This document shows, one piece after another, positions 1 to 64,000 of a DNA stretch of 64,000 bases; position 1 is the stretch's first letter; every line of letters begins with the position of its first letter. The position numbers and the translations under genes were made by a program. The stretch is from Stegostoma tigrinum (lineage: Eukaryota): the NCBI RefSeq assembly GCF_030684315.1, contig NC_081371.1, positions 21,571,440-21,635,439 of the forward strand. Reading direction: 5' to 3'. The notes below the pieces were generated by a model. It had not been told where the DNA came from, made no database searches, and worked only from the letters and a program-made list of their open reading frames with translations.

Positions 1-149
1 TGTCAGAAGCATATCTCATAGCAGTTAAGTATGAGTTTTACTCATGTAGGATGCATCCTGGTTATCTGCTGGATTGTGACATCAAGACTCATGTTTTCCT
101 TCAACACCAATACCAGTAGTCAGCAGTCACATTTCAACCTCAATTCACC

Positions 150-286
150 CAATCTTTTCTGAAGAAAGGCTAAGGCCCGAAACATCAGCTTTCCTGCTTC
201 TATGATGCTGCTTGGCCTGCTGTATTCATCCAGCTCTACACCTTATTATCTCAGATTCTCCAGCATCTGCAGTTCCTACTATCCCT
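150..286 (+). mobile_element. Penelope-like element 3' end (pLTR fragment, subfamily A) with degenerate hammerhead motif
   Basis: CTGAAGA..GGCCCGAAACATC at 159-186, then the family terminus ...gatgctgcttggcctgctgtattcatccagctctacacc...gattctccagcatctgcagttcc. Flanked by direct repeat ctcaattcacc (139-149, 287-297). Confidence 0.8.
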
Positions 287-769
287 CTCAATTCACCACA
301 GTTGCAGCAAACTGTAGAGTGAAGTCCTTTACTTTCTTTCCTCTGCTATAAAAGTGATAAAATGTTGGGTATTCCTGCAGTTATGGTAAACCCAAATTCC
401 ACTGTAGTTTCTGCTGAACTCTTGCTTACAGTTAGATTAGATGTTGCTGTTTTGGATACGATCATTGAATTCAGGCTCAATTTTTTGAAGTATTGGTGAC
501 TTTTTGTTCGGCCCCTAAGTTGATCAGTCTGTGTCAACTGCAAAAAAAATGTTCAAAAAGGTACTGGAATTACAGAGATAATGAGAACTAATAGCTTTGA
601 TAGAATTATAGTTTTTCTTTACATCAAACAACAACCCTCTTTTTGCTCCAATTCTTCACATAGGTATTTTTCAAAACATTCAAGATTACAAATGTGTGGG
701 AAGTTTTTTTGCCATGTTAAACGATAGAAAACGTGATTGTTTTGAAAGATGCATCAAACATTCAGCAAA

Positions 770-1170
770 ATGAACATTCAAATTAGGAGCAAGAGAAGAC
801 CATTTTCCCCTTGAGCTTGCACTGCCATTCAGTATATACATGGCTGATATAATTGTACCCTCAACTCCAAAAAATTTTCAATAACCATAGGCTACCTTTG
901 TTAATCACGAATTTTCCTACCTCTTCCTTAACAGCATTTAATGGTCCTGCCTTCACTGCTCTCTGGAGAAGAGAATTCCAAAGACACAAGACCATCTGAA
1001 AGAAATAATACCTTCTCACCTCCAATTTCAAAGAATTTTCATTTTTAAGTTGTGTCCCCTAGATCAGAATTTCCTACATGCAGAAACATCCTTTCAGCAT
1101 CCATGCTGTCAACTCCCCTCAGTATCATAAATGTTTTAATCACGAACTCATGGATTGATAAGTCAGCAGC
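770..1170 (-). mobile_element. CR1-type LINE 3' end, decayed
   Basis: Resembles the other CR1 3' ends in the window (16340, 41070, 53000-53260), e.g. ttaggagcaagagaagaccattt and ctctggagaagagaattccaaaga. Confidence 0.55.
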
Positions 1171-1499
1171 CTTAAGGATATGAGAGGAGAAAATAGCTTT
1201 AAAAATTCAAACTGACATATACAGAAGTGACTTCTAGGCGATATCAGAGGTTAAAACTCAGCTGACAATCATAAACCTCAATTATTTTATGGTATGTTCT
1301 GAACATAACACCTTGATCAGACTGTTGCTTAATAGTCATGTTAATTATGTGATACAAAAGTAATCCAAATCTATATTTAGCCATCATGATCACCATGATT
1401 GAGATCTAGTCCCTTCTCTTTAAACCATAAGTACAGGAATAGGGATAGTTCTGCAGCTTCTAAACTTCAGTTAGATCATTGTTGATCTTTAGATATAAC

Positions 1500-2700
1500 T
1501 AACTGATCTGCTTTACCTGCAACTTGGTCACAACAGGAGACTCTCTTAAGATCAGTGCATGTGCTTTAGTGATTCTTCAAAGCATCCCTGTGACTCATAG
1601 ACATTCTTGGTTTGTGACTAACCAAAATGAAGAAGGCTTATTTGGGAAGTCACTAAGAGAAGCTTTATCAGGAATTGTACAGAGGCAAAGTCAAGACATT
1701 AGATTTCCAAGCAGCCCATCTATCTATACCTTTGAACACCATGTTGTGACAATGTGCAGATCACAATCAGGCTGATCAACATCTCAGAACTCATCAGACT
1801 GAAGTGGAAGAAGTCATTCTCAAGATTGTAGGATTGCCCAGAAGAAGAAGATGATCTGTACCTCAACTGTCCACAATTTTTACTGCCGCTATAGTGTCCA
1901 AAATCCAGTACCATTATGACCAAGACCTTAGCGGATTATGGATTCCCAAGCAGCTTCTTCATGCAGACTTCACAGACCCTAAGAGAAATGGCTAATTTCT
2001 GATTCTCTTCCCTGAAAGTGGCCAGGAATGTTGTAACTGGAATGCTCCTGCCAGTGGAACAGGCAGCTTTGTTTATAAACTATTGTTCTAAAACTATCAC
2101 CATCACTTCATTTTGCTTGAAGCTCTTTAGACCTTTTTTTTTCATTTATTACTCAGTGCAAGTCAGTCTCATGAGCTCAGAGTTGGCAAGAAGCTAGTTC
2201 TGATAAGTGAGACATGAATATTTTGCTATCTAGACCATTGGAAATAAGATTGAAGAACCACAGTGACGATAATTCCAGGAAGTGAGGCCCCTCCAAATGA
2301 GGAAAATAAACCTGTGTTATTGCTGACTGTGAGTCTTTGATTCCTAAATACTGCCTCATTCACTGAACCTGAGTAAAGTTTTTCAACCTCAGTTTTACCA
2401 CGTTTGGACCTCGATGATGCCAATCACAGCCAGCACTATAAGCACACCAGCAAGAAGAAAACATCAAACAATATAAAATTACTTGTCATCTTGTAATCCA
2501 GATCATCATCCTGTAGCTGAAATTAGCCACACTCAGAAGTAGCATTTCTGTCCTCTGAAGTCAGTCTGAGAATGGCCTGTTCATTGCCACATTGTGCCTG
2601 AGAAAGACATGTCCAGTTTTTGCACAGTTCTGCCTGGCAGATTGCTGGGTTTGAGATACCGTACCTATATTTTCACAGATTTTCTTCCAAACACCTGCCT
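1500..2700 (-). mobile_element. Possible highly decayed Gypsy LTR-retrotransposon gag/pro remnant
   Basis: Minus-strand translation near 2600-2640 gives NCAKTGH (zinc-knuckle-like), and near 2360-2390 gives KLYSGSVN (protease-DSG-like). No intact ORF. Confidence 0.3.
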
Positions 2701-2737
2701 ATAATAAAACCCAACTAATTAAAGTATCCAATGGAAG

Positions 2738-2845
2738 GGCTCTTGTGGTGTAGTGGTAGTATCCCTATCACTGAGCTAGGAGGCCAGGGTTCATGTTCCA
2801 CCTATTCCAGAGGTGTGGAATGACATCATTGAAGCAGTTGATTAT
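2738..2845 (+). mobile_element. Short tRNA-derived SINE
   Basis: A-box-like tggtgtagtgg and B-box-like gggttcatgttcc. Body (cagaggtgtg...catcattgaagcagttg) is shared with 6960-7075. Confidence 0.6.
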
Positions 2846-5744: not shown

Positions 5745-5960
5745 GGTGAAGACACCTCCTCTTCTTTGAATAGTACTGTGGGATATTTTATCTCCAGATG
5801 TCTTGACTTAATATTTAAAATAAGACTTCTCAAATAATGCAGGACTTGGTCAGTACAATATCTCCACATTTGAATGTAGACCAAATACTGCATTCTGGGA
5901 ATTAGGTTTGGATGCATGTCCTTCAGACTCTGAGCTGAGTGGTCTACCACTGATCTAGGC
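5745..5960 (-). mobile_element. Deu-domain SINE 5' part, decayed
   Basis: cttctttgaatagtactgtgggatattttat... resembles the copy at 41880-42330 and the reverse complement of 11325-11750. Confidence 0.4.
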
Positions 5961-7075: not shown

Positions 7076-7403
7076 ACAATTGCAAGCATTGGGGCTAAAA
7101 ATGGTTATGGGGATCAGGATACTCAATTATCTCTTGCCTGTTCATCGTAATGTGTGCAGAATACCAACTTTGAGATAAAAAGGTGTAGAGCTGGATGAAC
7201 ACAGCAGGCCAAGCAGCATCAGAGGAGCAGGAGAGCTGATGTTTTGGGCCTAGACCTTTCTTCAGAAATGGGGGAGGGGAAGGGGATTCTGAAATAAATA
7301 GAGAGAGGGGGGGAGGCAGATAGAAGATGGATAAAGGAGAAGATAGGTGGAGAGGAGACAGACAAGTCAAAGAGGCGGGGATGGAGCCACTAAAGGTGAG
7401 GAG

Positions 7404-7718
7404 TTAGATTAGAATACCTACAGTGTGGAAACAGACCCTTTGGCCCAACATGTCCACACTGCCCCTTGAAGCATCCCACCCAGACCCATCCCCTATAACA
7501 CACACACCCCTGAATACTACGGACAATTTAGCATGGCCAATCCACCTAGCCTGCACATCTTTGGAATGTGGGAGGAAACCGGAGCGCCCGGAGGAAACTC
7601 ACGCAGACACGGGGAGAAGGTGCAAACTCCACACAGACAGTCGCCCGAGGCTGGAATTGAACCCAGGTCCCTGGCGCTGTGAGGCTGCAGTGCTAAGCAC
7701 TGAACCACCGTGCCGCCC
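7404..7718 (-). mobile_element. HE1-type V-SINE (tRNA-derived) inserted into the PLE
   Basis: Minus strand: gggcggcacggtggttcagtgcttagc (A box), gggttcaattcc (B box), V-domain gtggagtttgcaccttctccccgtgtctgcgtg...ttcctcccacattccaaagatgtgcagg, and tail ...attctaatctaa. Confidence 0.88.
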
Positions 7719-7840
7719 TAGAAGGGAATAGGTCAGTCGAGAGAGGATGGACAGGTCCAGGGGGCAGGATGAGGCTAGTAGATAGGAGATGGGGATGAGG
7801 CCTGAGGTGGGAGGAGGGGATAGGTCGGAGGAAGGACAGG

Positions 7841-8260
7841 TTAGGGAGGCGGGGACAAGCTGGGCTGGTTTTGGGATGCAGTAGGGGGAGGGGAGATTTT
7901 GAAGCTTGTGAAGTCCACATTGATACAATTAGGCTGCAGGGTTCCCAAGCAGAATATGAGGTGCTGTTCCTGCAACCTTTGAGTGGCATCATTGTGACAC
8001 TGCAGGAGGCCCAGGATGGACATGTCATCCGAGGAGTGGGAGGAAGAGTTGAAATGGTTCGCGACTGGGAGGTGCAGTTGTTTGTTGCGAATTGAGCATT
8101 GGTGTTCCACAAAGCAGTCCCTAAGCCTCCACTTGGTTTCCCCGATATAGAGGAGGCCACAACGGGTACAGCGGATACAGTATACCACATTAGCAGGTGA
8201 ACATCTGCTTGATGTGGAAGGTCTTCTTGGGGCCTGGGATAGGGGTGAGGGGTAAGGTGT
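7841..8260 (-). pseudogene. PLE GIY-YIG endonuclease domain fragment
   Basis: VVY-x-I-x-C-xx-C...YIGET...RL...EH motifs in ORF 7841..8350; frameshifted upstream. Confidence 0.85.
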
Positions 8261-9329
8261 AGGGGCAGGTGTAGCACTTCCTGAGGTTGCAGGGAAAAGT
8301 GCCAGGGGTGGTGGGGCTGGAGGCGAGTATGGATCGGACGAGGGAGTCACAGAGAGAGTGGGCCCTCCGGAAAGCAGATAAGGGTGGGGAGGGAAAAATG
8401 TCTTTTGTGGTGGGGTCTGATTGCGGATGGCGGAAGTGTCAGAGGATAATGCATTGGTTCCAGACGTTGGTATGTGAGGATGAGGGGAATTTTTCCGCCA
8501 CCTCCGCCTCCGCGCTTACTTCTTTAAGCATGAGCCTAACCCTCCCTCCAATGACCCCTTCTCCCACCTCCAACACACCTCTCCTCCTGGACACCATCTC
8601 AAGGCCTCCTACCCTCCCTCAACCTCTTCATCTCTAACTGCCGTCAAGACAACAATCGCTTCAACCTCTCCACCTCTCTCGCCCACTCCAACCGCTCCCC
8701 CGCAGAACCTGCAACCCTCCGTTTCAATCCCCATCTCACCATAAAATCCGCGGACAAGGGTGGCATAGTTGTAGTATGGTGCACCGACCTCTACATTGCC
8801 GAGATCAGATGCCAGTTCTCTGTCACCTCCTCCTACCAGCCCCTTGATCATGACCCCACCCCCGACCTCCAAAACATCATCTCCCAAACCATCCACAACC
8901 TCATCACTTCATGTGACCTCCCACCCACAGCCTCCAACCTTATTGTTCCCCAAAGTGCACCGCCCACTTCTATCTCCTTCCCAAAATCCAGAAACCTGAC
9001 TGCCTTGGTCGACCCATTGTCACCGCCTGCTCCTGCCCCATTAAATTTATCTCTACCCAAAACCAGCCCAACTTGTCCCCACCTCCCTAACCTGTCCTTC
9101 CTCCCACCTCAAGCCCCACCCCCATCTCCTACCTACCAGCCTCATCCGCCATCTGGACCTGTCCATCCTCCCTGAACTGACCTATTCCCTCCCTAACTCA
9201 CCTTTACTGGCTCCATCCCCGCCTCTTTGACCTGTCTGTCTCCTCTCACCCTATCTTCTCCTCTCCATCTTCTATCCACCTCTCCCTCTCTCCATATTTA
9301 TTTCAGAATTCCTTTCTCCTCCGCCATTT

Positions 9330-9357
9330 CTGAAGAAGAGTCTAGGCCCGAAACGTC
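9330..9357 (+). ncRNA. Minimal type I hammerhead ribozyme motif (PLE-associated)
   Basis: CTGAAGA-A-GAG-tctagg-CCC-GAAA-C-GTC: conserved core boxes, short stem II with one mismatch, palindromic ACGT in place of stem III. Confidence 0.65.
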
Positions 9358-9869
9358 AAGTTTCCTGCTCCTCTGATGCTGCTTGGCCTTCTGTGTTCAT
9401 CCAGTTCTACACCTTGTTATCTCAGATTCTCCAGCATCTGCAGTTCCGATCTCAGAAACAGTGTACCAACTTTGTCCTGTCTGTCTGTTGATTCTGAGTG
9501 ATTTCGTTGTCCAGCCAATACAAACCACGCCATTAACTGATCACATATTGAGGTGAGGGGGAAGGGATACAATATTGTATGTGGCTTGAATCCCTTAAAT
9601 TTAACTTGCACCTCTTAAACAGCACATTGTAGCTGGATCAAATACTGACAGTAGAGCAAAAAATGAATCTGACATAGGAATTGGGGAAGATTATTGTAAC
9701 ATGGTAGAGTTTAGTTTCCAACATTTTTGAATGCAAAACTGGAGATGTGCATGGAGGATGTGCAAAATAGGAGGTTTGTCTTGTAAAAAGAATCATATTG
9801 ACTCGTCTTCCATGCTACCAAACATGCTGGGTTCTTCAAGCACGTTTTATTTTTATTACATTTTAGCAA

Positions 9870-11324: not shown

Positions 11325-11750
11325 AGAGTCATAAGGTTCAAGTTCTCTTTCAGGGCTTCAGCACAAAAATCAAGGCTGACACTGAGTGCAATAGGGAGGG
11401 AATGGAAGAAGTGCCCTATTTCAGATAAGGCCTTAAACCAAGGCTCCATCTGCTTGTTGAGGTGCATGTGAAAAATGCCATAGTATGCTTTAGAAGAAGA
11501 ATAGCAAGCTATCTTCTTGTCCTGGACAATATTCATCCCTTAACCAACACACAAAAATGAATATCTGGTCATTATCACATTGCTGTTTGTTGCAGCTTGT
11601 AGTATGCAAACTGACTGTTATATTTCCTGTATTACAACAATGCTATGTTTCAAAAGAATGTCACTGGCTGTGAATCCTTTAAGACATTTTGTGGCTGTAA
11701 CAACTGTTACATAAAAGTAAGATTTCCTTTCTTCCTTAAAAGCTTGGTGA
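11325..11750 (+). mobile_element. Deu-domain SINE (SacSINE1/AmnSINE-like)
   Basis: B-box-like ggttcaagttc; Deu-like core gtcctggacaatattcatcccttaaccaac...tatctggtcattatcacattgctgtttgt. Confidence 0.65.
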
Positions 11751-11779
11751 AACTCAAAGTGGGAATGTCACTTAGTTTG

Positions 11780-11958
11780 AGAGAGAGAGATAATTGGAAC
11801 TGCAGATGCTGGAGAATCCAAAATAATAAAATGTGAGGCTGGATGAACACAGCAGGCCAAGCAGCATCTCAGGAGCACAAAAGCTGACGTTTCGGGCTTT
11901 TGTGCTCCTGAGATGCTGCTTGGCCTGCTGTGTTCATCCAGCCTCACATTTTATTACC
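11780..11958. mobile_element. Short PLE hairpin insertion (subfamily B)
   Basis: Arms ~11824-11885 and ~11896-11956 are reverse complements. Unpaired tail on the left. 15-bp TSD atgtcacttagtttg at 11765-11779 and 11959-11973. Confidence 0.9.
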
Positions 11959-13479
11959 ATGTCACTTAGTTTGGATGGGTTGCATCCTAGGTTGCTGATA
12001 AAAGTAATTGTGGAAATTGCAGAGGCCACAATCTTCCAAACCATCAGAGAAAAATGAGTGGTACCAAAAATTTGAGGGCTGTAAATGTAACACCCCGTTC
12101 AAAAAATGGTAGAGGACAAATCTGGCAATAAAAGTTTGTTTACCTAATGCTACTTATGAGACAACTTGGTGGTGACATGATCTAGAACAAAATTAATTGC
12201 CACTTAGAAAGATATTACCAAATAAATGATAGCCAGCATGGATTTGTTCACAGCAAATCATGTTCGACTAACTTGATCAAGTTCTTTGATGAAATAGTGA
12301 AGGTAGTGCTGTTGATATCGTTGATACTTGTATATGGATTTCTAAAAATTGCTTAATAAATTACCATACAAGTTTTGACATGTTCATAGGATTAAGGTGG
12401 CAGTGACTGAATAACGTGAAGCTGACTGAAAACAGTGTCTAGTTGTGAACAGTTGCTTTTCAGATTGGAGAGAAATGTTTAATGTTGTCTCTGAGAGGTC
12501 AGTATTGGGACTTCTACAGTTTTCGATATATATTAATAGATTTGGATACACAGAGCATAATTTTAATATTTGTAAATGACACAAAGCTTGGAAAAATGGT
12601 AAACAGTTTGGAGGATGGGAACAGATCTCATAGGGATGTAAGGCACTCTGGTAAAATGGGTGGACACGTTGCAGATGCAATTTAATACAGAGAAGTGTGA
12701 AGTATTTCATTTTGGTATGGAGATTGAGAGAAGGAGCTATGAACTAAACAGCACCATATCAAAAGGGTTCAGAAACAGATAATTCTGGAGTGTAAGTATA
12801 CAAATCTTTGAAGCTGGTAGGCCAAGTTAATAAGATTGTTAATAAAGCATACAAAATACAACGCTTTGTAAGTAGATCCAAAAGGTACACAGCAAAGAGG
12901 TCATGCTAATCCAATTCAGCACACCACTTTTGACAGTTCTATCAGGGCCATAGAGAGAATGCAGTTGAAATTTACCCAGTGTGAAAGAAAGTCAGTTATG
13001 TTTGGAAACTAAGGCAGGTTTTTCTAACAGGCCCAGACTGTGGCCCACCATTGGCTCCCATCCAGCTCACAACCAGTGCTCTAAATACAGACAAGTACAT
13101 GTGGAAGATTCTGCAAGGATACTCTCATTCAATCAAAACTTGTTTTCTGCTGATAGACTCACTGGTGGGAATAACAGAAAACAGTCTCTAACTTCATTCA
13201 GACTGAGGCTTGGTGGCCAACTGTGGTCGTGGGGATAACAAGGGACAGGGTGCCTGATGGACGGGTCCAGGAATTAGGTTGTGGCTGAGTTTGGGCCAGG
13301 TGGCAAGCAACTCGGGTGAAGACCAGATTCTGTCCTTTGTACCCCTGGAAGAATTGTAGTTAATGGCAGATCAAGACTTAAACTGGCAGAACATTTGGGA
13401 GGAATGAGTGAGAACATGAAAGGGTATGAAGGAGGGAACAAGGGAAGGAAAGAGTGTGGGGGGAATGTGTATGTGGGAG

Positions 13480-13765: not shown

Positions 13766-15244
13766 CATGAGATTGAGTGATCCAGTCAACACCCAACCTT
13801 CCCTTCTCTTCCTCTCCCCAAACACCTCTCTGCAAGACAAGCTGGGAGAGGAGGTAGCCCAATTCACCTGCAACCCACTTTAGTATGGACTTTGCTAAGG
13901 CCAGTTCAAGTTGTACACCACCAGAAGTGATTGTAAGGTCAGTATTAGTTAAACCCTATTCTTCAGCCTGATCCCTGTTCCTTACCCCCTTTTGTAGAGA
14001 TTGGGACTTCTGGTCTGGTCTGACTGTCTCCAGCTCTGCTTCATAGCCATTGTGGCAAAAATAGTTTTATTGGAACTCTGCTGCTTGGCATGTTTTGATG
14101 CTCATTGTTTTATTTATACACTTATTGAAATTATTAATTTACTGCTTTGGAATACTTTTTTGAAAGGTGTTTCCTATTGTGCCAAACCTCATCTTTCTGA
14201 AATTTGATCTCTGGCCCTTTGAATGAGTGAAAAATTGAAATGTGGCTGCTCTACAGAAAATTTTGTCAAGCCTGGCATGGAGAAAGTGGGGTTATTCTCC
14301 CTATCTCTATCACTGGACTGGCTCACAGGTAGAGCACATGAAATTTAAGCATCACTGTCAGGAGAGGTTGTTATAGGTTATGACACTGCTGGAATGCTCA
14401 ACTGGATATGAATGAGTTAGTTCCTGAAGCATACAAAAAAAAGTTTCAAAATTTGAGGAAGAGAGCCTGGGCAAACCTACACTTTTGAAATGGTAAAGAA
14501 AAGTAATTTTGACAGAGCCATATTTTCTCTTAAACTCTTAAAAGAACGAGGGCTCACTCTCAACATCTCTGTGTGCATTCTACGGTATGGTCCTCTGTCG
14601 GTTTAATAATTAATTGTAAGCATGCATGAAAGAGATTAACCAGGCACCAACTTCTCTGACCCAGAGGAGGTCATCCACCCCTTTTAGTATCATACAAGAT
14701 GATACAGGCTTTAAGTATAAGTACCATGTACGATGCTCTCACAGAGATCATTCACTGTGAAGAATGTAAAAACTCATCCCTTTTTGTAATAAAAATCTAT
14801 GTTGAAGACCATAGAGTTGTAGTTGCTAGAGGGGCAACAGAAGTGACAAACAATTATGAGATGATCCCTAAAATTAAACCTTTCATTGTCACCCTCATGA
14901 ACTCAAGAGGGGTAGAGTGAAAAGAAGGCAGGGTACAGATAGAACAGCTGGGAATTCCCCAAGATCCCCTTCACAAATTAGAATGCAAAGTGTTGCGGAT
15001 GCAGGTGGAAATTGAAGGGCAAAGTGTGCAATTTGCAACTTAGAAAATCAAGTTGGATTGTGTGATAAAGTTATACAGTAGAATGCTATTGTGGACATTG
15101 TGGCTGTTATGTCATTAAGCCAAGGCAGCACCTGAAATGTTTAAAGGAAAACCACTTATTGACGGCCCTCGGAGTCTTCTGGCTGCAGACCTGTAAGTCA
15201 GCCAAAACATCCAGAGCTGGAAAACAGAACACATCCATCTCCCT

Positions 15245-15457
15245 GATAAAAAAGTGTGGAGCTGGATGAACACAACAGGCCAAGCAGCATCTTAGGAGCA
15301 CAAAAGCTGACGTTTCGGGCCTAGACCCTTCATCAGAGAGAGGGTCTAGGCCCAAAACGTCAGCTTTTGTGCTCCTGAGATGCTGCTTGGCCTGCTCTGT
15401 TCATCCAGCTCCACACTTTGTTATCTTGGATTCTCCAGCATCTGCTGTTCCCATTAT
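15245..15457. mobile_element. Short PLE hairpin insertion (subfamily B) with intact hammerhead on the minus arm
   Basis: Arms ~15245-15329 and ~15341-15425 are inverted repeats. Tail 15426-15457. 15-bp TSD cacatccatctccct at 15230-15244 and 15458-15472. Confidence 0.9.
15309..15336 (-). ncRNA. Minimal type I hammerhead ribozyme motif
   Basis: Minus strand CTGATGA-A-GGG-tctagg-CCC-GAAA-C-GTC; all core positions intact. Confidence 0.72.
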
Positions 15458-16019
15458 CACATCCATCTCCCTTCTCTCTGCTTGAGTGAAAGTTAAAAAA
15501 AGGCAGGAAACAAAAAGAAAGAATTCAAATCCAAGACCTAGGTCCACCTGATCAATGACTGAATCAAAGAACAACCATCAGTCTACAGAAAACACTGTGC
15601 CTTCTTTGGTAAAATCAAAATTACCAAGAGAAATAACATAATTCATCCATGTGATCTGGGCTTCTGATCTTCAGCATTTTGTGTGCCCTGCCTTTATTTT
15701 TCAACCCATAATTTCTGTAACAATCTGTCTGTCTGATTCATGAAAGATATGTGCGTATTTGGGTTTTGTAGGGGTAAATCTGAAGTTGCATAGTAATAGA
15801 TTAGTAATCATTTTCCTCTGCCATTTGTTAAAGAATAAGTGTGTTTCCAATAAATAGTTATTTTCCTTTTAATGACTAGGCCTAGTGTGAATTGCTTTTG
15901 TCTTGAATGGCAGGTCACTTAGGCAAATTGATCACATTAACTATCATGGCTTGCAGAATAGTGATGTTCAATTACCGGTCCTTTCAACCCAATTACATTG
16001 CCCTAAAAATTTCATTTTC

Positions 16020-26770: not shown

Positions 26771-26799
26771 TTCTCTGCAAACGATGTGTACTCCAGCTG

Positions 26800-26976
26800 A
26801 GCAGAATCTCAGGAGCACAAAAGCTGACGTTTTGGGCCTAGACCCTTCATCAGAGAGGTGTCTAGGCCCGAAACGTCAGCTTTTGTGCTCCTGAGATGCT
26901 GCTGGGCCTGCTGTATTCATCCAGCCTCACATTTTATTATCTTGGATTCTCCAGCATCTGCAGTTCCCATTATCAC
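26800..26976. mobile_element. Short PLE hairpin insertion (subfamily B)
   Basis: Inverted arms ~26800-26845 and ~26858-26903. Hammerhead motif on minus at 26826-26853 with one core mutation. 13-bp TSD tgtactccagctg at 26787-26799 and 26977-26989. Confidence 0.88.
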
Positions 26977-28449
26977 TGTACTCCAGCTGTACTGGTTCCT
27001 GATTAGGGAAGAGGCCATATCATATGAAAGATCTTTAAAGGTTACTCTTGGTCCATTTGATGTCCAGGACAAGTTTCAACTGACTAAGGGGTCAGAGAGG
27101 ACTTCCCCATTATCCTGACCCTGAGTTTTTACTTTTTGACATTCTTTGGAGATCAGATGGTCTGGGTGTGAGTTGGGTGAGATAATATTGTATCAGTGGA
27201 GACATAGGAGACATGAGAAAGAATGTAACCCTTATGGTCCAGCATCTTGTTTTGGCACAGGATTGATCAGCCTGCTGGTTGTATCTGTCAATTTTGTTCG
27301 CATATAGTTACAGCGCCAGTCAGAAATACTCTTCCAACGCTGTCTTGAAAGAATAACTACCTGGGTTTCAGTCTCATACCCACAAAGACACAGTAGTTAT
27401 CGCATATGCTGTTATAGTACGAGGTTGTCATTGATCTGTCATTCCCCTCTTAAGAAGAATAAAACGTAGAAAATTAATTGTTAATTTGGGAAAATAAAGT
27501 GGATGTTCAAGGTGTAAAATATTAATTTTTGCTTATTGACTTCATGATTTTGCTCTACTTTAGCTTCAGATCTCTTCGTTCCAATTTCACAATTGTGGCT
27601 GTCTGAATTTTCCCCCTTATACATGGCTTTGATCCTCCCTCTCCACATGGTTCTCTTTGTTCCCAGTCAGGCTTGACTTGTTCAGTATGTCTGCAGATGT
27701 CTGTTTGCCTGACACTCCCAGCTGTCAAACATTAAGGCTTGAATTCAGCATTTCTTCCTTTCCTTCACTAGAAAGTTAAGCAAATTCGAGACAGGATAGA
27801 GCTATTTCAGCCTCCAAGGATAAATAAAAGTTCTCTCTTGATATTGTACTCATAGTCTAATATTGTTTAAAGTGTGTTTTTTTGTGTTTTTGGATTATAA
27901 AGAACCTCTTGAACAAGTTTCCAGGACCCAATTTATATACATTAATACCAAAATTCAACCTACATTTAGGAACATAAATCATTATCAAGCTGCAAGCCTA
28001 ATCAGTGCTATTTTTAACTAGCACTCAGCTCTTTCCCCTCCTCTTGAGATTTAGGTTTCATTGCTAGTATCAGTTTTGAGCAAGTACCAGCATAAACTGA
28101 AGATGGAGCTGCAAAAGTTTCTCCACGTTTAGATCTTTATAACTATCTTGACAGAGTCTGCCAATCTTTCTAATTGCTGGATAAATCCTGCAGAGTCATT
28201 ATGCAGGTTCATCAATTTCTTCAGCCAATAGGACAAAAAACATCATCTTTGCTCACTGATCCAGATGATGCATTTAACCTAGCTGAACAGGAGTAAATAA
28301 ACAGTTCAAATTTTAGCACTGGATTAACTTGGAATAGAATTTGCATCATGATTAACTATGAATGTAAAAGCAAATAATCAAACATTGTGAATCTAGATAT
28401 CGTCATGAACTGCAGAGACCACATCAAATACTAATTTAAGTGAAACAAT

Positions 28450-36767: not shown

Positions 36768-37970
36768 TCACCTTACTTTTTCACTTTCAGTCATCTGCCA
36801 GAGTCCCAAGTTAAGAACTTTCAGGCAGGGAAGTTGCGTTATTCTTTCCAATCCCCTTTTGGTGATTTTTGTGCAGCCGTAAAGATCAATGCCAGTGAGC
36901 TGGGTCAAGTGGTCAGCTATGAGCTCCAGTCCTTTGTCTGTAATCCTTACACACTGGCCGATATTTAGGGTCCTCAATTCGTGCATCTGCCGGGCCATTT
37001 TGTTGATGCCGTCATCACTTATGTGGCAAGAGCAGAGGGAAAGCGACTTCAGCTGAAACAAGCCTTGAGCAATGTAAGCCAGGCTCTGGTCACCTATCTT
37101 GTCACAAAAGGAAACGTCCAAACCGGTCAGTCTCAAGCTACCCATAGCCAAATGCATGATGCCGGTATCGCTGATGTTGTCGCAGGATCTCAAGTTGAGA
37201 CTCCACAAACTGGTCATGTGTGATAGGTGCAACATACCCGCGTCTGAAATCCCACCGCAGAAACTCAGGTTGAGAACCTTGAGCTTGGTCAGGCCTTTGG
37301 AGATGTGTTTTAAGGAAAGATCCGAGAGTTTCTGGCAGTCCTGTAAAGTCAGATACTCCAGGTTTAAGCAGCCTTCCGCAGCGCTCCTGGTCATGCCTGC
37401 CAAATGGCCGATGCCGACATCCGAGACATGCCGGCAGCTCCTCAAATTTAGGCTCTTGAGTCTGTGCAAGCCCCAGGCTATGAGCAGAAGGCCCGTGTTG
37501 GTGATGTTGCTGCAGCCGCCCAGCTCCAGCACCTCCAGGTTCTTGAGGTACTGCGCGATTCTGCCCAGGCTGCTGTCGGTGATCTGTTTGCAGAGGCTCA
37601 GGTTCAGCACGTTAAGGGACGGGATCTCCTGCACGAACGCGTGTCCCAGGCCGATGTCTGTCAAGTTGTAGCAGCCGCTGAGGTTGAGGCTCTCGATGTT
37701 GGGCATGCCCTGGATCACATAGCTGAGGCTGCGGCGCAGGCTGAGGATCTGCACCCGCCTGATGCCCCTGGCCTGCAGGCTGGGGAACAGGGAAGGGTTG
37801 GCTCTCCTCAGATGCAACTTGGCTTCGACCCCCCTCCAGACGGATTTGTGGTAAGCAGCGTCCCTCCAGGCCGCGCACACTTGTGCCGCTCGCCCTTTGT
37901 CCCGCACGTCCAGATAACTGAAGATCATGGCTAAAATCTCCGGGAAGAGACAGGAGATGTGCGTCTCCAT
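36768..37970 (-). CDS. FBXL14: F-box/LRR-repeat protein 14 (SCF substrate receptor), 400 aa, uninterrupted CDS
   Basis: METHISCLFPEILAMIFSYLDVRDKGRAAQVC (F-box), tandem LRRs (LNLSGCYNLTD, LNLSLCKQITD, LELGGCSNITN...), ending LNLGLWQMTESEKVR. The first ATG is at 37970; the ORF track start at 38018 is a non-ATG extension. Confidence 0.97.
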   Translation of the reverse strand: METHISCLFPEILAMIFSYLDVRDKGRAAQVCAAWRDAAYHKSVWRGVEAKLHLRRANPSLFPSLQARGIRRVQILSLRRSLSYVIQGMPNIESLNLSGCYNLTDIGLGHAFVQEIPSLNVLNLSLCKQITDSSLGRIAQYLKNLEVLELGGCSNITNTGLLLIAWGLHRLKSLNLRSCRHVSDVGIGHLAGMTRSAAEGCLNLEYLTLQDCQKLSDLSLKHISKGLTKLKVLNLSFCGGISDAGMLHLSHMTSLWSLNLRSCDNISDTGIMHLAMGSLRLTGLDVSFCDKIGDQSLAYIAQGLFQLKSLSLCSCHISDDGINKMARQMHELRTLNIGQCVRITDKGLELIADHLTQLTGIDLYGCTKITKRGLERITQLPCLKVLNLGLWQMTESEKVR

Positions 37971-38760
37971 ATTTTTTTGACCTGATTTCCCACTGGCCTC
38001 TCTCCCTTTCTCTCTCAATGTCTCAGTCTCTCCCTATTTTTTTTGGGCCAATCGATCAATTCGCGATCCCCGGGACTGCGTCACGTGATCCTGCTGCTGC
38101 TGCTCGTTGCGCAGTCGGATTCAAACTGCAAAACCCTTCGGCGCATCAGAAAAGCAGCTTTAAAACTCTGGGCTCTTAGCCTAAAGGCACGACTGCCGAT
38201 GCATTCCCCACCCAGGCTTGTATTACTTGAAATCGCGGGACGAGGAGGAAGGAGGGGGGATTAAAAAGTGGAGGCCGCGGAGTTGTTCCTTTTGAACGAA
38301 TGCACCCACCCCCTCGTCGTCCTCCTCCATCGGAGCTCCTCGCTCTCACTCTCACGCCTGCAGCCCGAGGGCTTCCTGCGGCCTTTGTCTGATCTTTTCA
38401 AACCCACTTGGCAGGCGCGCAGCATTTTCCATCGCGGGGGTGTCCCCGGAAATTAAAAGCAGCAGGAGAATCGCGCTGCCAGAACGCAAACCTCCTGCTC
38501 GGCTCAGGAATGGCCTGACCTGCTGTGGTGACCCGTTCGGTTTCGTTTGACAGGGAAGCATAAATGATGTGAGAGTTGAAGCAGCGTTGCCTTCTGCACT
38601 CGGACTACCCCGCCGTTTCAGACGGCAGTTGGTCTCGCCCAGATGGAACGGCAAGAATCGTTCCCTAGGTAACCAACTTCTTACAATTCACTTCACTTTC
38701 CATTAACCCTGGAGTGCCCGGTGCGTAGGGAAAATGTAGCCTTTCTCACCTGGAAATTCA
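37971..38760 (-). promoter_or_regulatory. CpG-rich 5' UTR/promoter region of FBXL14
   Basis: CpG density is far above the flanks. CCAAT at 38048-38052, GTCACGTGAT E-box at 38080-38089 overlapping TGCGTCA (CRE half-site-like), GA-rich tract at 38241-38260. Confidence 0.7.
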
Positions 38761-39402: not shown

Positions 39403-39621
39403 TGTACCTAATTACAGCTTTTTAAACCCAAACTAAGACGAATATTGGCCCAGATATACAGCCACATTATAAACAGGCCGTTGTTTTCTGTGCTCAATGT
39501 AATGAGTGTTGACTTCGTCAATGCTTAAACTACATATTCGTTTTCCTTTGTGTCTAGCAATTATGATTCAACTAAAACAGGTTTGGACTTCATATCAAAT
39601 CATCAGTTTTGATAATATTGT

Positions 39622-39808
39622 TTCAGAGATAGCAGGAACTGCAGATGCACGATGAATACGCAGCTGGATGAACACTCCAGGTCAAATAGCATCAGACAAG
39701 CAGGAAAGCTGACGTTTCGGGCGAAGGGTCTAGGCCCGAAACGTCAGCTTTCCTGCTCCTCTGATGCTGCTTGTCTGCTGTGTTCATCCAGCTCTACACC
39801 TTGTATTC
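39622..39808. mobile_element. Short PLE hairpin insertion (subfamily A)
   Basis: Inverted arms ~39662-39722 and ~39734-39793, tail on the left. 16-bp TSD tcagttttgataatat at 39603-39618 and 39809-39824. Confidence 0.85.
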
Positions 39809-39959
39809 TCAGTTTTGATAATATCCTGAGTTTATATCATGCGTTTATATATTGTTCCTGGATACATTACCATAGATCTTATCATACAAAAATAATATTT
39901 TTTGACGAGACAAGAGTAGCCCTTCTTAGCTCTAAGTAATATATATTGTGATTAAGGTG

Positions 39960-40330
39960 TGAAACTAGCCGTGTTGTTATTGTGAACACTTGCTAACATC
40001 GAAGAGTTAACTTTCAAAAAGGCTTGGAGACAGCGAGAGGCCTTTAAAGAGCCGGGCGGGGGTGGAGACTGCGGCGACTGTGGGATTGTCTATCAGAGCG
40101 CGTGTGCGACACCTTCAGACTGGCCCCGGCACCGGAATGGAAGCGAGGAGCGACAATTTGTGTTGTCAGCTTGTAAATACAAACACAAATTACACAAGCA
40201 GGTTTTGATGGTGAATAACGTCTGCACCCGAATAACTGCAGTATATTCTGCTCATCGGGGTGGAGGGGCCCGCAGTCCATGCACACAATGAACAACTGTT
40301 TACCCAACGTCAGTAGAAGGGCAATTAAAA
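39960..40330. promoter_or_regulatory. Second CpG-rich patch (candidate promoter/enhancer)
   Basis: GC box gggcgggg at ~40054 and many CpGs (gcgcgtgtgcga, ccccggcaccgg) in otherwise CpG-poor DNA. Confidence 0.4.
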
Positions 40331-41067
40331 GCAAATAATAAGCTTTTGGAATTACAGTTTTTTTAAGGGGCAATGAGGCAAAAACACAAGTTTCTCACTA
40401 TATTGCACCGAAATAACAGATGCCTTTAGTCAATTTTCAAGAGAACAGGGAGAGTAGGAGTTTCCATAACAATATGCTGAATGCAAAGGAAATGCCTTTA
40501 ATTTAACAAAAACAGGTATGTTCATTACTGATTCAGGTGCTTTATTCAAGCCGTATGTTTTAATTTTACTTTATTGTAATGAATGCAAACTCTCTTCTGT
40601 CTTGGCTACTGCGGTAGTAGAAGAGGTATGTCACTCTGTGTCATATGTCTGGAAGAAGAAATAGCATCAATTCATCAGTTTTGTCTTTTTCAAAGTTGTT
40701 ATTATTCATGAAATTGAATGGGATAAAATAATATGGTGCTCCCTTTGCGCTGTCCTGGACAGGCAGCATCTCCAACTGCGAGTGTTGGCTAACTCACATT
40801 AAACATTGCTGGTTATTTTGCATTTGATGATTTCATGCAGGAGTCTTATCAAGAATTTATTTGAAAACAATAATTCACTAATCTTCCTACTCCTTCTTTA
40901 TTAAAATAGGGTCCTGTTACACTCTTGTGCTATTGTTTCAATTTTCTGCAGACTAACTTAAAATTTGCTTTACTTTGAAAGGAAGCGGTTTTTGGCAGTG
41001 TTTCATCTAGTTGAATGAAATGAAGACTGTTAATACGGACGAATAGTTGATAGCTTTCTTTACTACA

Positions 41068-43576: not shown

Positions 43577-43664
43577 GACCCTTCTAGGCCTGAAACGTCA
43601 GCTTTCCTGCTCCTCTGATGCTGCTTGGCCTGCTGTGTTCGTCCAGCTCTACACCTTGTTATCT
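43577..43664 (+). mobile_element. PLE terminus fragment (subfamily A), tail-less
   Basis: gacccttc (inverted hammerhead bit) + taggcctgaaacgtcagctttcctgctcctctgatgctgcttggcc...acaccttgttatct. No clear TSD. Confidence 0.8.
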
Positions 43665-54202: not shown

Positions 54203-54517
54203 AGTGGCCCAGTGGTTAGCATTGCTGCCTCACAGTGCCAGGGACCCAGGTTCGATTCCATACTCGGGCAACTGTCTGTGTGGAGTTTGCACATTCTCTG
54301 CGCCTGTGTGGATTTTCTCCAGGTGCTCCAGTTTCCTCCCACAGTCCAAAGATGTGCAGGCCAGATGGATTGGCCGTGCGAAATTGCCCATAATGTTCAG
54401 GGATGTGTAGATTAGGTGGGTTATAGAGGGATGGGTCTGGGTGGGATGCTCTGAGCGTCGGTGTGGACTTGTAGGGCTGAAGGCCCTATTTCCAAACTGT
54501 AGGGCTTGTGTGATTCT
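54203..54517 (+). mobile_element. HE1-type V-SINE
   Basis: A box tggcccagtgg, B box ggttcgattcc; V-domain and tail as in 7404-7718. Confidence 0.88.
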
Positions 54518-54559
54518 TGTATGTATGTATGATTATATATCAATGAGGTCAGACCATAT

Positions 54560-56242: not shown

Positions 56243-56407
56243 GGATTAACTTATATTTGTGAAACAAAATCCCATGATAGAGAAGAGAGATCTTGTTTAA
56301 AGTTTGAAGAAGGCTATCCTGGATAAACAAGCCCTCAATAATAAAGAGATCAACTGCAAAACTATGACATTTTGAAGAAGGAATTCGAGAAAATCTGACA
56401 GAACATG

Positions 56408-56503
56408 GCAGCACGGTGGCTCAGTGGTTAGCACTGCTGCCTCAAAGCGCCAGGGACCCAGGTTCGATTCTAGCCTCGGGTGACTGTGTGGAGTTTGCAC
56501 GTT
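56408..56503 (+). mobile_element. Truncated HE1-type SINE head
   Basis: ggcagcacggtggctcagtggttagcactgctgcctc...ggttcgattc...gtggagtttgcac. Confidence 0.85.
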
Positions 56504-56599
56504 TGTGCCTGTTAGATTCTGGAAATCCCATCCTTTGTGTATACTGTTAGGCTAAAGGCACCAATGGTACATTAGTCTCCTTCTCTTCAGTTGTCAGGC

Positions 56600-57990: not shown

Positions 57991-58259
57991 AATAGTTGTG
58001 CCCAATTAATGATTTAAGGTCAGACAGGAAATCTCAGAGCACTGAGGTGGTCCCAGGTTTGTGAGTTAGAGAGGTAGATGGGAGAGAATCTGAAAACTGA
58101 CTTGCGTACAAATAATGCGACTGTGGAGCAGTCAATTGTGGAGGGAGCATCATGAACAGCCATAAAATGGCTAACTTCGGAATAGATTTTTAACATAACA
58201 GAAACAAGTTCAAATAATACAAAGGACTACACACATTGAATTGAGCTGAACAGTTGAAA

Positions 58260-59650: not shown

Positions 59651-59669
59651 TAGGATATTTCTGTGAAGA

Positions 59670-60760
59670 AGAGATAAGTAATAGGAGACAGGATAGGCCC
59701 TTTCAGATCATCAAGTCTGCTCTGATTGTGGCCTTAACTCCACTTTCCTGCCTGACTGTACTACCCTCAACTTTCTTGTCAATTAAAGTCAGTGTCTTCA
59801 TCCAGTCATTAATATAAAACATAAATAACTGAGGCCACAGCACCGATCCCTGCAACACCTCACTTATACAGTTTGTCAACCTGAAAACAGCTACTTCGCT
59901 CTGAATTTGTTTTTATGAATTAGCCAATCCTCTGGTAATGTTAAAAATATCACCCCTCCTCCCCATCTGCACCCCGAGCATCATGAGCTCTTACCTTATA
60001 CGGTGGCCCTTTTATGTGGCAAGTATTCAAATGGTTTTTGGGAATCTAATTACATTGCAAAAACCAATCACCCCTTACCAACCCTGCTTGTTACTCCTCA
60101 AAAAAAACCTCATTTTTTAATCAAACATTATTCCCCTTTCATAATCCCATGATGAATGTACCTGAGAAGATGAGAATTTTGTAAACATCATGCTGCCTTC
60201 TGCGATTGTCACCATGACAGCCATCATCAATTGTTGTAAAAACCCATCTGCTTCGTTCATGTTCTTTGCCCTGGTCTGGCCTACATATGACTCCAAACCT
60301 AAACTCACCTCTGAAATATTGTAGCAACATTCAATTCAAACGCAGTTTGGGATGGCTAGAAAATGTCATCTTACCAGTGATGCTGGCATCACATGAAATA
60401 ATAAAAAGAAAGTTAGACTAGCTGACGAACTGTCCTTTCTTGAATAGTAGCGTTATATTTGCAACTTTTCAAACCCCTGAAACTTTCCAGCATCTAGGGG
60501 ATTTTGGAAAATTACAGCCAATATATTCATTATCTCTGCAGCCAATTCCGAAAATACCCTAAGATTGGGCTCAAGGGACTTTTAGTTCTGTTAGTTTTCC
60601 TAATACTTTTCCCCTAGTGATCAGAATGAAAAGTCCCTTGAACCCAATAGCCTACATCTTAGGGGATTTTATACTTCTCTTGGGATGAGTGTTGTACATT
60701 CTACCACAAATACTTGTTCAAAATTTCTGCTATTTTCTCAAACTCATTGCAACTACCTAT
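59670..60760 (-). mobile_element. CR1 LINE fragments interrupted by a SINE-like element
   Basis: taataggagacaggataggccctttcag tail; gaggccacagcaccgatccctgcaacacc is the reverse of GVAGIGAVAS / GVPQGSVLGP-like sequence. Confidence 0.55.
60165..60410 (+). mobile_element. SINE-like element sharing head and tail with the LINE at 23022-26378
   Basis: aaacccatctgcttc...ctggtctggcctacatatgactcca...gggatggctagaaatg...gtgatgctggcatcacatgaaataataaaaag; reverse-complement match to 21362-21560. Confidence 0.65.
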
Positions 60761-61639
60761 AGTGTTTGCAAAATCTAAAGGCATGGTGAAAAAATACAAT
60801 GGAAAACAATACCTTCAAACTGCTTTTAAATTTACCCAAGTCCATCGTAGGTATTATGTGAAAAACTGCTTTGGATGAAAGTGATTCCCACATGTGGTAA
60901 GATTGTTCCTATGAACCAAGTAAATTTGTTATCTTTCTTGTTAAATTCTTCTATGAAGTATTAGCAGAACAAATATTTAACATTCAATGTATTCATGAGA
61001 TTCAATTTCTGATCTTACCTATGAAAGGGATAGATGTCAATGCGACATGTTGTAGGTTTGAACCTAGTGGTTATGCATTTTTTTAAGGTTTTACCTTGTG
61101 ATTTGCTTCATTAGTAGCCAGGAGGTAGGGTCTGTTACTGTATCCGGTGAATTTACTGCCAAAATGTTTGTCTGAGGCTTGAGTGGTGGTGGTGATAATC
61201 TACTACTAACAAGTTTTTCCCTCAAAATCACAGGCACTTTGACGTATGAATGATCTTGTCATTTTATTCTATACAATGTCTTTACCTAATTTAATCTTCT
61301 GATCTTTGAGCTTCCTTTCAGGTTTCGGTGTTCCATTTTTTTATTCTTTTGTCTAACTGATGCAATCGTAACTCTAGTGGATGCAGCACAGAGATAGTAG
61401 GGACCTTTGCCATCACACTTGTCTGCATGAAAGCCTGTTGAGGTGTTAGTGCAGGACATGAAGCTGATCCTACAGAAACAATTATATCTGTTAAAAGCTC
61501 AGGCACATTTGCAGCTCTTGTCCTTGGCTTTAATTGCTGGTCACATCACTATATTTTACCATCCCTTGGTCTTTTAATGCATCAATACTAGTTCTTTGAT
61601 TAGAGGAATGAAGTGGTGGTGCTGCTTATCAAGTACTTG

Positions 61640-61995
61640 GTGTCAGATAGAAGTCTGACACCAAATACTGAAGGGGAATGCTGAGGTACAGCTGTATGCT
61701 GTCAATGCACATGTGAAAACCACATTGTGTCTTAAAACAATGCCATTGAGGGGCAAATTATGGATGAGAAAGAGGAATTCACCAAAGTTAGATCTTTTAG
61801 AGAATTCCAATGGCAAGGGTGTTGGAGCAGGAAAATAAACCATTGCCAATTATTCTCTGTTGGTGATTCAAGATATTATTATGGAACCAGATGAGAGCAG
61901 TCATGCCATGTTGGATGGCAGTACAAAAATGTTGTCAACAAAAATATGGTCAACTATGTCAATGGATGCAGATAGGTTGAAAAAGACAGGTAAGG
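61640..61995 (-). mobile_element. L2 RT remnant
   Basis: ORF 61643..61849 FGEFLFLIHNLPLNGIVLRHNVVF resembles L2 LGPLLFLIYMLPLGxIIRxHxVxF. Confidence 0.55.
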
Positions 61996-62071
61996 TAAAT
62001 TAACCTTTGTAATAGAATGTGAGGCTGGATGAACACAGCAGGCCAAGCAGCATCTCAGGAGCACAAAAGCT

Positions 62072-62099
62072 GATGTTTCGGGCCTAGACCCTTCATCAG
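62072..62099 (-). ncRNA. Minimal hammerhead ribozyme motif
   Basis: Minus strand CTGATGAAGGGTCTAGGCCCGAAACATC (ACGT changed to ACAT, consistent with CpG decay). Confidence 0.6.
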
Positions 62100-63089
62100 A
62101 GAGGGGGATGGGGAGAGGGAACTGGAATAAATAGGGAGAGAGGGGGAGGCGGACCGAAGATGGAGAGTAAAGAAGATAGGTGGAGAGAGTATAGGTGGGG
62201 AGGTAGGGAGGGGATAGGTCAGTCCAGGGAGGACGGACAGGTCAAGGAGGTGGGATGAGGTTAGTAGGTAGATGGGGGTGCGGCTTGGGGTGGGAGGAAG
62301 GGATGGGTGAGAGGAAGAACCGGTTAGGGAGGCAGAGACAGGTTGGACTGGTTTTGGGATGCAGTGGGTGGAGGGGACGAACTGGGCTGTTTATGGGATG
62401 CGGTGGGGGAAGGGGAGATTTTGAAGCTGGTGAAGTCCACATTGATACCATATGGCTGCAGGGTTCCCAGGTGGAATATGAGTTGCTGTTCCTGCAACCT
62501 TCGGGTGGCATCATTGTGGCAGTGCAGGAGGCCCATGATGGACATGTCATCTAGAGAATGGGAGGGGGAGTGGAAATGGTTTGCGACTGGGAGGTGCAGC
62601 GACATGTCCATCATGGGCCTCCTGCACTGCCACAATGATGCCACCCGAAGGTTGCAGGAACAGCAACTCATATTCCGCCTGGGAACCCTGCAGCCATATG
62701 GTATTAATGTGGACTTCACCAGTTTCAAAATCTCCCCTTCCCCTACTGCATCCCTAAACCAGCCCAGTTCGTCCCCTCCCCCCACTGCACCACACAACCA
62801 GCCCAGCTCTTCCCCCCCCACCCACTGCATCCCAAAACCAGTCCAACCTGTCTCTGCCTCCCTAACCGGTTCTTCCTCTCACCCATCCCTTCCTCCCACC
62901 CGAAGCCGCACCCCCATCTACCTACTAACCTCATCCCACCTCCTTGACCTGCCCGTCTTCCCTGGACTGACCTATCCCCTCCCTACCTCCCCACCTATAC
63001 TCTCTCCACCTATCTTCTTTACTCTCCATCGTCGGTCCGCCTCCCCCTCTCTCCCTATTTATTCCAGTTCCCTCTCCCCATCCCCCTCT

Positions 63090-63117
63090 CTGATGAAGGG
63101 TCTAGGCCTGAAACGTC
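63090..63117 (+). ncRNA. Minimal hammerhead ribozyme motif
   Basis: CTGATGAAGGGTCTAGGCCTGAAACGTC (closing C of stem II changed to T). Confidence 0.6.
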
Positions 63118-64000
63118 AGCCTTTGTGCTCCTGAGATGCTGCTTGGCCTGCTGTGTTCATCCAGCCTCACATTCTATTATCTTGGAATTCTCCAGCATCT
63201 GCAGTTCCCATTACCTCTAAATTAACCTTTGTGATGTTTATAAAGAAGGTTATCTGTGCCTTTCATAAGAGCTGTTTTGGTACAGGGATTTGGATTCTTA
63301 TTGTGAACCCCAGAGAAAGAAACTTTTTGTTAGGAAATAACTTTGTTGGCAAGAAAGGCAATCAAAAACTTAGAATACAGATTACCAAGTTTTATTGAAC
63401 GATAAGAATTGATATTTAAAATTTCATTGTTCATGGCATGGCACAATATACATGGTCAACACTTACGAATCTTGAGACTTCTAGGGTCTTCCTGGTTCCT
63501 TGAACCTGCTCTCTTGATTCATAACATACTTCAATATTTTAGCATAGCCAACTTAACTCTAACATACATACAAATCATATTGTAGCCTTAAGACTTCATG
63601 ATTTGTGAATCCTTTTTAAACCCACAATTTCCCAGTCTACCTTAGGCTTGAATTTCCAGTCTACCTTAACTTTTGAAGGTAGTGTTGGGCAGCTGCCTTC
63701 TGAGTTTTTTTCTCTCTCCCTCTCTTTGGTGGAACTAACTTCCTCACAAAAACTGCAGCTTTCCCAAAATGAGAAAGATTGTACTTTACCAGTGATTGTC
63801 CCAAGTTAGACTTCAACTGACTAAATGAGTCCTTGTTTGTTGAAGTTATATGGTTTCTATTCACTTTCTCATTAGGTAATTACTATAGCTCTGGCAATGC
63901 AGTATGTAGTGGAGCCATCGATTTCTATACTGGGCCTTATCCCAATGTAGAAATCCTCCAGCTATATTAATTACCAAAGCCTAATACTGGGTTTTTACAG

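Follow-up and report, generated by a model that had tools for sequence, protein, structure and literature searches.

How does a retroelement come to lie in a genome as two of its own 3' ends, joined head to head, pointing outward and enclosed by a single target-site duplication (TSD)? The question is raised by 64,000 nucleotides of Stegostoma tigrinum (NC_081371.1, positions 21,571,440 to 21,635,439 of the forward strand; this whole stretch is called the window), which hold eight copies of the terminus of one Penelope-like element (PLE) family, six of them arranged as such hairpins. The copies in the window, a genomic sample and genome-wide matches point to an answer: both nicked target strands probably prime reverse transcription at two internal sites, usually on one element RNA, and the two cDNAs would then be end-joined.

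One arm of each pair carries a tail

The initial annotation of the window, made from its letters, had reported eight termini and six outward-facing inverted pairs, each inside a single direct repeat of 11-16 bp. Self-BLAST, a repeat search and reading of the sequence recovered every one of them in place, and the direct repeats of the pairs were exact:

139..297, + strand: single tailed arm of an older subfamily (arm 156-286); TSD 11 bp, 139-149/287-297
7162..9474, both strands: inverted pair of an older subfamily; TSD 11 bp, 7162-7172/9464-9474
about 7173-8472, - strand: tail-less left arm of that pair, with a GIY-YIG remnant; another repeat interrupts it at 7417-7708
about 8490-9463, + strand: tailed right arm of that pair, an N-terminal piece of reverse transcriptase (RT) fused to the 3' end
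11765..11973, both strands: mini inverted pair; TSD 15 bp, 11765-11779/11959-11973; tailed left arm 11780-11897 (-), tail-less right arm 11896-11958 (+)
15230..15472, both strands: mini inverted pair; TSD 15 bp, 15230-15244/15458-15472; tail-less left arm 15245-15344 (-), tailed right arm 15341-15457 (+)
26787..26989, both strands: mini inverted pair; TSD 13 bp, 26787-26799/26977-26989; shortened left arm 26800-26858 (-), tailed right arm 26860-26976 (+)
39603..39824, both strands: mini inverted pair of an older subfamily; TSD 16 bp, 39603-39618/39809-39824; tailed left arm 39619-39722 (-) with a small internal deletion, tail-less right arm 39715-39808 (+)
43583..43664, + strand: single tail-less arm, no TSD
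61996..63232, both strands: long inverted pair of the young subfamily; TSD 15 bp, 61996-62010/63218-63232; tail-less left arm 62011-62599 (-), tailed right arm 62601-63217 (+)
63183..63217 (boundaries approximate), + strand: 35-nt tail between the two 3' end sites, each preceded by an ATTATC-like motif

Both arms of the 61996..63232 pair hold the GIY-YIG end of the open reading frame (ORF), the 3' untranslated region and the pseudo-long terminal repeat (pLTR), and the right arm of the 7162..9474 pair has an internal deletion of about 1.5 kb between the RT piece and the 3' end. No direct repeat was found around the single arm at 43.6 kb (best score 6); in a control with shuffled flank pairings (3,000 trials), a score of 9 was reached in 0.9%. 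The hairpins had been described as two 3' ends, which is correct for their orientation and incorrect for their equivalence: in five of the six pairs one arm has the 35-nt tail and the other lacks it, and at 26.8 kb the left arm ends about 40 nt before the usual 3' end. Positions in the element are numbered from the tail-less 3' end as 0, with the end of the tail at about +35 and the hammerhead ribozyme core at -93 to -66.

The generality of this asymmetry was assessed in 20 blocks of 50 kb at round coordinates (1.0 Mb), from 24 chosen, of which one was all N and three lay past contig ends. Left out of the counts were duplicate overlapping loci, L003, L168, L216 and one pair in block B04 (complex tandem read-through), six tail-tail loci, and pairs under the identity cut of each analysis. 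Among 53 sampled pairs, 47 were one-tailed, three had two tails, one had none and two were unclassifiable; one tail per pair was therefore the arrangement in 47 of the 51 classifiable pairs (p = 1e-10 versus chance). Single arms were tail-less (55) and tailed (48) in near-equal numbers, so that chance alone would make half of the pairs mixed. Genome-wide, a 33-mer of the young subfamily had 86,649 exact matches, and 19,481 exact-tag core-core matches represented short hairpins. The tail was on the left in 7,808 short hairpins and on the right in 7,628, and 219 were double-tailed versus 3,057 expected, an expectation that is independent of tag decay provided mutations are independent. A TSD was present in one of the six tail-tail cases retrieved. 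Older related families with a different hammerhead stem II contain the same one-tail hairpins with TSDs (e.g., L168:8535-8695), and the behavior is thus not confined to one subfamily.

Both arms arrived in one event

The arrival of both arms in a single event had been proposed for these hairpins, with orthologous empty sites named as a check. At 11.8 kb, contigs of a related species (X5 and X9 from one sample, X7 from another study) align with 11563-11764 and resume directly at 11959. The 194 bases skipped equal the 179-bp insert plus one 15-bp repeat; the empty site therefore holds one copy of the TSD and no arm, and at this one site the proposal was borne out. The relative's contigs at the 26.8-kb site start at the right repeat with 209 unaligned leading bases, and this suggests that the site is empty there as well. 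Each hairpin is one insertion event. Fold-back during assembly or library preparation has a negligible probability as the source of the palindromes: the arms are asymmetric, diverged and enclosed by TSDs, the relative has a clean empty site, and contigs from a second sample of the same species (X3) contain flank-to-arm junctions (left and right for the 15.3-kb hairpin, right for those at 11.8 and 26.8 kb). The contigs from X3 and from the relative are short-read assemblies.

TSDs were identified in 61 of 67 young one-tail pairs (median 14 bp, range 9-18) and in 27 of 76 young single arms, a difference that would follow if priming takes place at both ends of a pair. Outside both TSD edges, A was enriched at -9 to -5 (44% and 48% versus 29% background, p < 1e-9, 73 sites), and this mirror-image enrichment fits a two-fold symmetric nuclease. 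The initial annotation had considered long TSDs atypical of PLEs. A TSD together with an inverted pLTR and a tail has been published as the typical Penelope structure, with 8-10 bp in the examples (PMC3846280; statements on this paper and on PMC8557442, PMC11167929 and PMC4209133 refer to the portions of each that were available). The structure itself is not unusual for PLEs; the median of 14 bp exceeds the values of those examples.

The two arms tend to match in length and sequence

Among 86 pairs, both arms were short in 56 and long in 26, and only 4 were mixed (p = 2e-17). Long arm lengths were correlated (rho 0.52, n = 44) and lay within 15% of each other in 15 of the 44 long pairs versus 4.4 expected, with 5' ends 1-5 nt apart in some (-293/-292, -384/-379, -598/-594). 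Rare variants were common to both arms at 3.4 per kb versus 0.22 in shuffled pairs, and of 29 long pairs, 20 had arms of concordant haplotype, against a rate of 10% when arms were paired at random. This concordance favors one RNA, or one source, for both arms, and the discordant pairs indicate that exceptions exist.

A rather unlikely alternative is that the two strands prime on two separate RNAs in an asymmetric dimer, with length coupling due to simultaneous start and stop, and with shared variants due to one dominant source locus or to later conversion. It would accommodate the 7 of 29 long pairs that are discordant (B05, L016 and L017 among them still within about 15% in length) and a tailed arm that shows no stall at the second site. 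However, the scarcity of short-long mixtures (4 of 86) is hard to reconcile with independent RNAs, several long pairs have 5' ends that nearly coincide, and equivalent RNAs on a homodimer offer no simple cause for a lone tail in each insertion.

One tail per insertion and shared variants would also follow if cDNA from the tailed site folded back and was copied, the copy ending at the tail-less site, by cutting or by a stop, before its ligation to the opposite end of the target; the short palindromic overlap at many junctions agrees with this route. It requires a tailed arm that extends at least as far 5', but the longer arm was tailed in 19 and tail-less in 23 of 42 informative pairs, which rules out fold-back of a single tailed cDNA as a general route while leaving room for a subset. 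Discordant pairs, filler in 21 of 65 junctions and near-universal intact TSDs are also a poor fit, and fold-back copying appears highly improbable.

One long pair has an unusual center. In L208 (G000:C1:778441-781473), some 150 bp of non-element DNA lies between the arms that begin at -598/-594, all inside a 16-bp TSD; the central DNA may be captured filler or a later insertion.

Arm 5' ends and the hammerhead ribozyme

The tailed arm of the young pair contains three features that bear on where the copied RNAs begin:

63056..63062, + strand: TATA-like box, putative promoter, 30 nt upstream of the main 5'-end pile-up (from sequence and 5'-end histogram)
about 63086, + strand: putative RNA start, 30 nt past the TATA-like box
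63090..63117, + strand: minimal type-I hammerhead core (CUGAUGA, extra A, stem II, GAAA, palindromic ACGU)

Hammerhead cleavage is predicted after 63117, and the same motif is found in most arms. In the young subfamily, 58 of 183 arms start between -100 and -86, a range that includes -97, the position 30 nt downstream of the TATA-like box. In the older subfamily, the start falls on what we take to be an initiator-like sequence. Nine of the 183 arms start exactly at -65, the first base past the predicted cut (four of the nine come from two perfect palindromes with an ambiguous center), and other single positions from -86 to -42 have at most 3 starts each. In the window, the arm at 0.15 kb (156-286) begins at the 5' edge of the hammerhead and the right arm at 11.8 kb starts 1 nt past the predicted cut. 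Genome-wide, 1,102 starts were counted at -65 versus 102 at -67, a control position that was not matched for junction microhomology. The base preceding -97 was a non-template G in 3,327 cases and A in 1,059, a hint of cap copying. Single arms without a hairpin have the same 5' ends as paired arms. The enrichment at the predicted cut suggests, indirectly, that the hammerhead likely cleaves in the living animal. Folding of the pLTR plus tail revealed no structure beyond that of shuffled sequences (z about 0), and no special stem-loop is therefore claimed at the start sites.

Head-to-tail repeats in which a tail end is fused to a -65 start were seen in block B06 at 40195-40396 (G000:C6, about 50,040,200) and at G000:C1:144587914-144588043. 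They could come from template jumps, or from a circular RNA template as proposed in PMC4209133.

The 5' ends bear on a published interpretation, in which self-priming on an antisense transcript forms the hairpin before integration and the endonuclease trims and inserts it (PMC3846280; tail resolution from PMC8557442). This is the published reading of junction palindromes, and it leaves either arm free to be the longer one, with a single tail in each insertion. We consider it improbable for the shark family: the arm 5' ends match features of a sense RNA (predicted hammerhead cut, TATA-spaced start, extra G), hairpin-free single arms share those ends, and discordant arms and filler junctions are not expected.

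The 65 junctions examined comprised 32 with overlap, 12 blunt and 21 with filler. Thirty distinct junction types occurred among 32 young short pairs, indicating that the hairpins were made afresh. These junctions speak against the idea that a few master hairpins gave rise to the short ones as whole copies of a non-autonomous unit, as does the continuous range of hairpin sizes, from about 120 bp to over 4 kb. The sheer number of short-hairpin matches, and the few junctions that recur among the matches listed, would be in keeping with such masters, which we nevertheless regard as extremely unlikely.

A model of two-strand priming

In the favored interpretation, a dimeric element protein would nick the two target strands at staggered positions some 14 bp apart, with 3' overhangs as the result. 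Sense RNA would template the extension of the two target 3'-OH ends, which would start at separate sites 35 nt apart. The two strands would usually share one RNA molecule, so that both cDNAs include the stretch upstream of the tail. Both enzymes would run off the shared RNA 5' end. This end may be the capped start within the upstream pLTR (about -97), the site of hammerhead cleavage (-65) or a break at random. Host repair would link the two cDNAs, which have the same sense, through 1-5 nt of microhomology, bluntly or with filler, and priming by one strand alone would yield a single arm, tailed or tail-less about equally often. The initial annotation had likewise proposed that both nicked strands prime, an idea that gains support from the one-tail rule and the coupled arms; its premise of equivalent element 3' ends gives way to two internal sites 35 nt apart.

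A fuller version is put forward more tentatively, and we rate it slightly more doubtful than not: the dimer would prime both strands at fixed sites on one RNA, hammerhead-cut and capped RNAs would be the germ-line templates, and the hairpins would record cleavage. If true, dual copying of one template would explain tail, inverted pLTR and TSD together as products of a single step, and tens of thousands of hairpins would be a fossil record of RNA ends and in vivo evidence for cleavage by the minimal PLE hammerhead.

Several points weigh against these proposals. All of the evidence is a genomic footprint. The discordant long pairs, some of them length-matched, call for either two RNAs, a template switch or gene conversion at a later time, and similarity between arms could itself stem from later inter-arm conversion. 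No pile-up of tailed arms was seen at the start of the other cDNA (496, versus 777 in the adjacent interval); this absence of stalling argues against the simplest, collision form of the one-RNA model. Regarding the hammerhead, helix I is just 2 bp, the -67 control is unmatched (only about 28 of the first 100 listed -65 matches, judged by eye, have a preceding T, which excludes AG microhomology), and the G excess could come in part from junction palindromes. The Poseidon PAc protein of Anolis carolinensis had no strand preference of start sites in vitro, its insertion was found to need no hammerhead cleavage, and no RNA reads were found to end at the cut (PMC11167929). PAc also belongs to the Poseidon clade, whereas the shark element has the CX4CxxC linker of the Neptune/Nematis type.

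Frequency of inversion

The inverted product had been expected to be the majority outcome, and the counts did not uphold this. The 1.0-Mb sample contained 214 termini, older related families included, and 55 of 159 events (35%) were pairs with two intact termini. Where the copies were at least 85% identical, inverted pairs made up 47 of 100 events; for older copies the count was 8 of 59. About five more young events have a stub second arm within the TSD, and adding them brings inversion to about half of the young events, for which a majority is borderline.

Identity of the element

The Penelope-like identity given in the initial annotation was supported by RT, GIY-YIG and a hammerhead in the pLTR. 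RT and GIY-YIG remnants lie within the window, and a protein search of the 3.2-Gb genome returned copies with long open frames, including the full-length ORF whose reconstruction had been suggested. This copy, L168, has 1,105 open codons with a DKG motif ahead of the RT core, RT, a CX4CxxC linker and, at its C-terminal end, a GIY-YIG domain with internal cysteines, in a single ORF. Pfam matches were RVT_1 (E 9e-6) and GIY-YIG (E 0.004), both under the curated cut-offs. There were 280 protein relatives at E 1e-20 or better, the nearest named one being a shark protein with 76% identity, in agreement with the shark host assumed in the initial annotation; named reference PLE proteins were absent from these matches. 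Endonuclease-positive (EN+) PLEs are characterized by features that include the DKG motif and two cysteines in the GIY-YIG core with downstream histidines (CCHH) (PMC8557442). Both the DKG and the CCHH signature can be read from the L168 translation, where a CxxC separates the GIY-YIG motif halves. At L168:5550-5800, an N-terminal low-complexity Thr/Pro/Ala/Asp repeat varies in copy number with the frame preserved across copies.

Insertions also have the expected layout. L168 consists of an inverted tailed arm, a partial tandem, the full ORF and a pLTR, as in a textbook Penelope, and thus shows every feature of a typical EN+ Penelope insertion; partial-tandem pLTRs, inverted 5'-truncated copies and tails in the 30-40 bp range are represented by L168 and by the 53 inverted pairs in 1.0 Mb. 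TSDs vary in length (9-18 bp, median 14), with one copy at the orthologous empty site (one site). The CX4CxxC lies upstream of the GIY-YIG core in all four ORFs examined, with point changes elsewhere. The Penelope/Poseidon clade lacks a CX2-5CxxC linker between RT and endonuclease, and Neptune and Nematis carry it (PMC8557442); by this criterion the family belongs with Neptune or Nematis rather than Penelope/Poseidon. Judged by its translated sequence, the family is an EN+ PLE with a Neptune/Nematis-type linker, a feature that does not by itself separate Neptune from Nematis.

The hammerhead motif had 101 matches in the 1.0-Mb sample. Compared with the definition in PMC4209133, it has the core boxes, the extra base before stem II, G10.1-C11.1, a palindromic helix III and an NUH site; helix I is 2 bp by inspection, outside the defined 4-5 bp. 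Rfam scans for the hammerhead returned no match to it, only chance hairpin matches.

Other features of the window

Relatives of the 290-bp repeat at 7417-7708, which lies within the left arm of the 7.2-9.4 kb element, occur at 54204-54503 and 56407-56512. The repeat is about 80% similar to its other copies in the window and resembles a tRNA-derived shark short interspersed element. A 421-codon unbroken open frame at 36768-38033 (-) encodes an F-box and leucine-rich repeats and looks like a single-exon FBXL-type host gene, possibly FBXL14. A lone 27-bp inverted repeat with a 31-nt spacer at 60564-60648 is unrelated to the element; its microRNA-like Rfam score is weak and under threshold.

Comparison with known systems

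In LINE-1 twin priming, both nicked strands prime on element RNA and an inversion forms within one TSD. The cDNAs of that process derive from distinct, adjoining RNA segments, with a random position for the second primer site. In contrast, the shark arms cover the same stretch and both start sites are fixed. A separate structure in the L212:1548 region (G000:C1:1119614), in which a tail-less arm follows an inverted 73-bp piece of far-upstream ORF within a 12-bp TSD, resembles L1-type twin priming with a random second site.

The biochemically characterized PAc is alike in its RT with C-terminal GIY-YIG, its pLTR hammerhead and the processing of both strands: in vitro, both strands were cut and extended from two internal starts that bound the tail, and a dimer was predicted (PMC11167929). 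It differs in that no RNA ends were found at the PAc cut, whereas shark genomic 5' ends are enriched at the predicted one. The available part of PMC11167929 contains no model for inverted products. A literature search, with most subscription journals outside its range and a prior description therefore possible, found no proposal of two-strand priming for PLE inversions and, with the same scope, no report of PLE 5' truncation at the hammerhead cut. The metazoan PLE hammerheads of PMC4209133 share the extra base before stem II, G10.1-C11.1, the palindromic 15.2-16.2 and the prevalence of solo copies; their helix I is 4-5 bp, versus 2 bp in the shark, a length also reported for D. virilis. In Schistosoma, hammerheads occur as pairs on opposite strands, 100-700 bp from each other (PMC4209133). 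The role of the minimal PLE hammerhead is of interest, as in vivo evidence for its cleavage is stated to be lacking (PMC4209133) and cleavage was found dispensable in vitro (PMC11167929).

The origin of the tandem and inverted PLE structures and of the tail is a named open question (PMC8557442). Tens of thousands of young events in this family have ends that yield sharp, testable predictions: nicks spaced close to 14 bp, a single start site for each strand, an RNA 5' end shared by both cDNAs, and the ribozyme product among the templates. Its near-intact ORFs suit biochemistry. The architecture is already published, and the measured rules add a mechanistic footprint. Pen2a-type Penelope elements of Adineta vaga also have an inverted 5'-truncated copy by direct copy, outward 3' ends, a 30-40 bp tail at one end, a TSD and partial tandems, and an empty allele has been shown, with self-priming on antisense RNA proposed (PMC3846280). 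Relative to those examples, shark TSDs are longer (median 14 versus 8-10 bp) and copy number is very high. PLE tails are often at one end only, in a life cycle described as undefined (PMC8557442); where the available text of PMC3846280 and PMC8557442 treats the tail as optional or often one-sided, the shark family has a near-strict one per pair, with coupled arms and fixed 5' ends.

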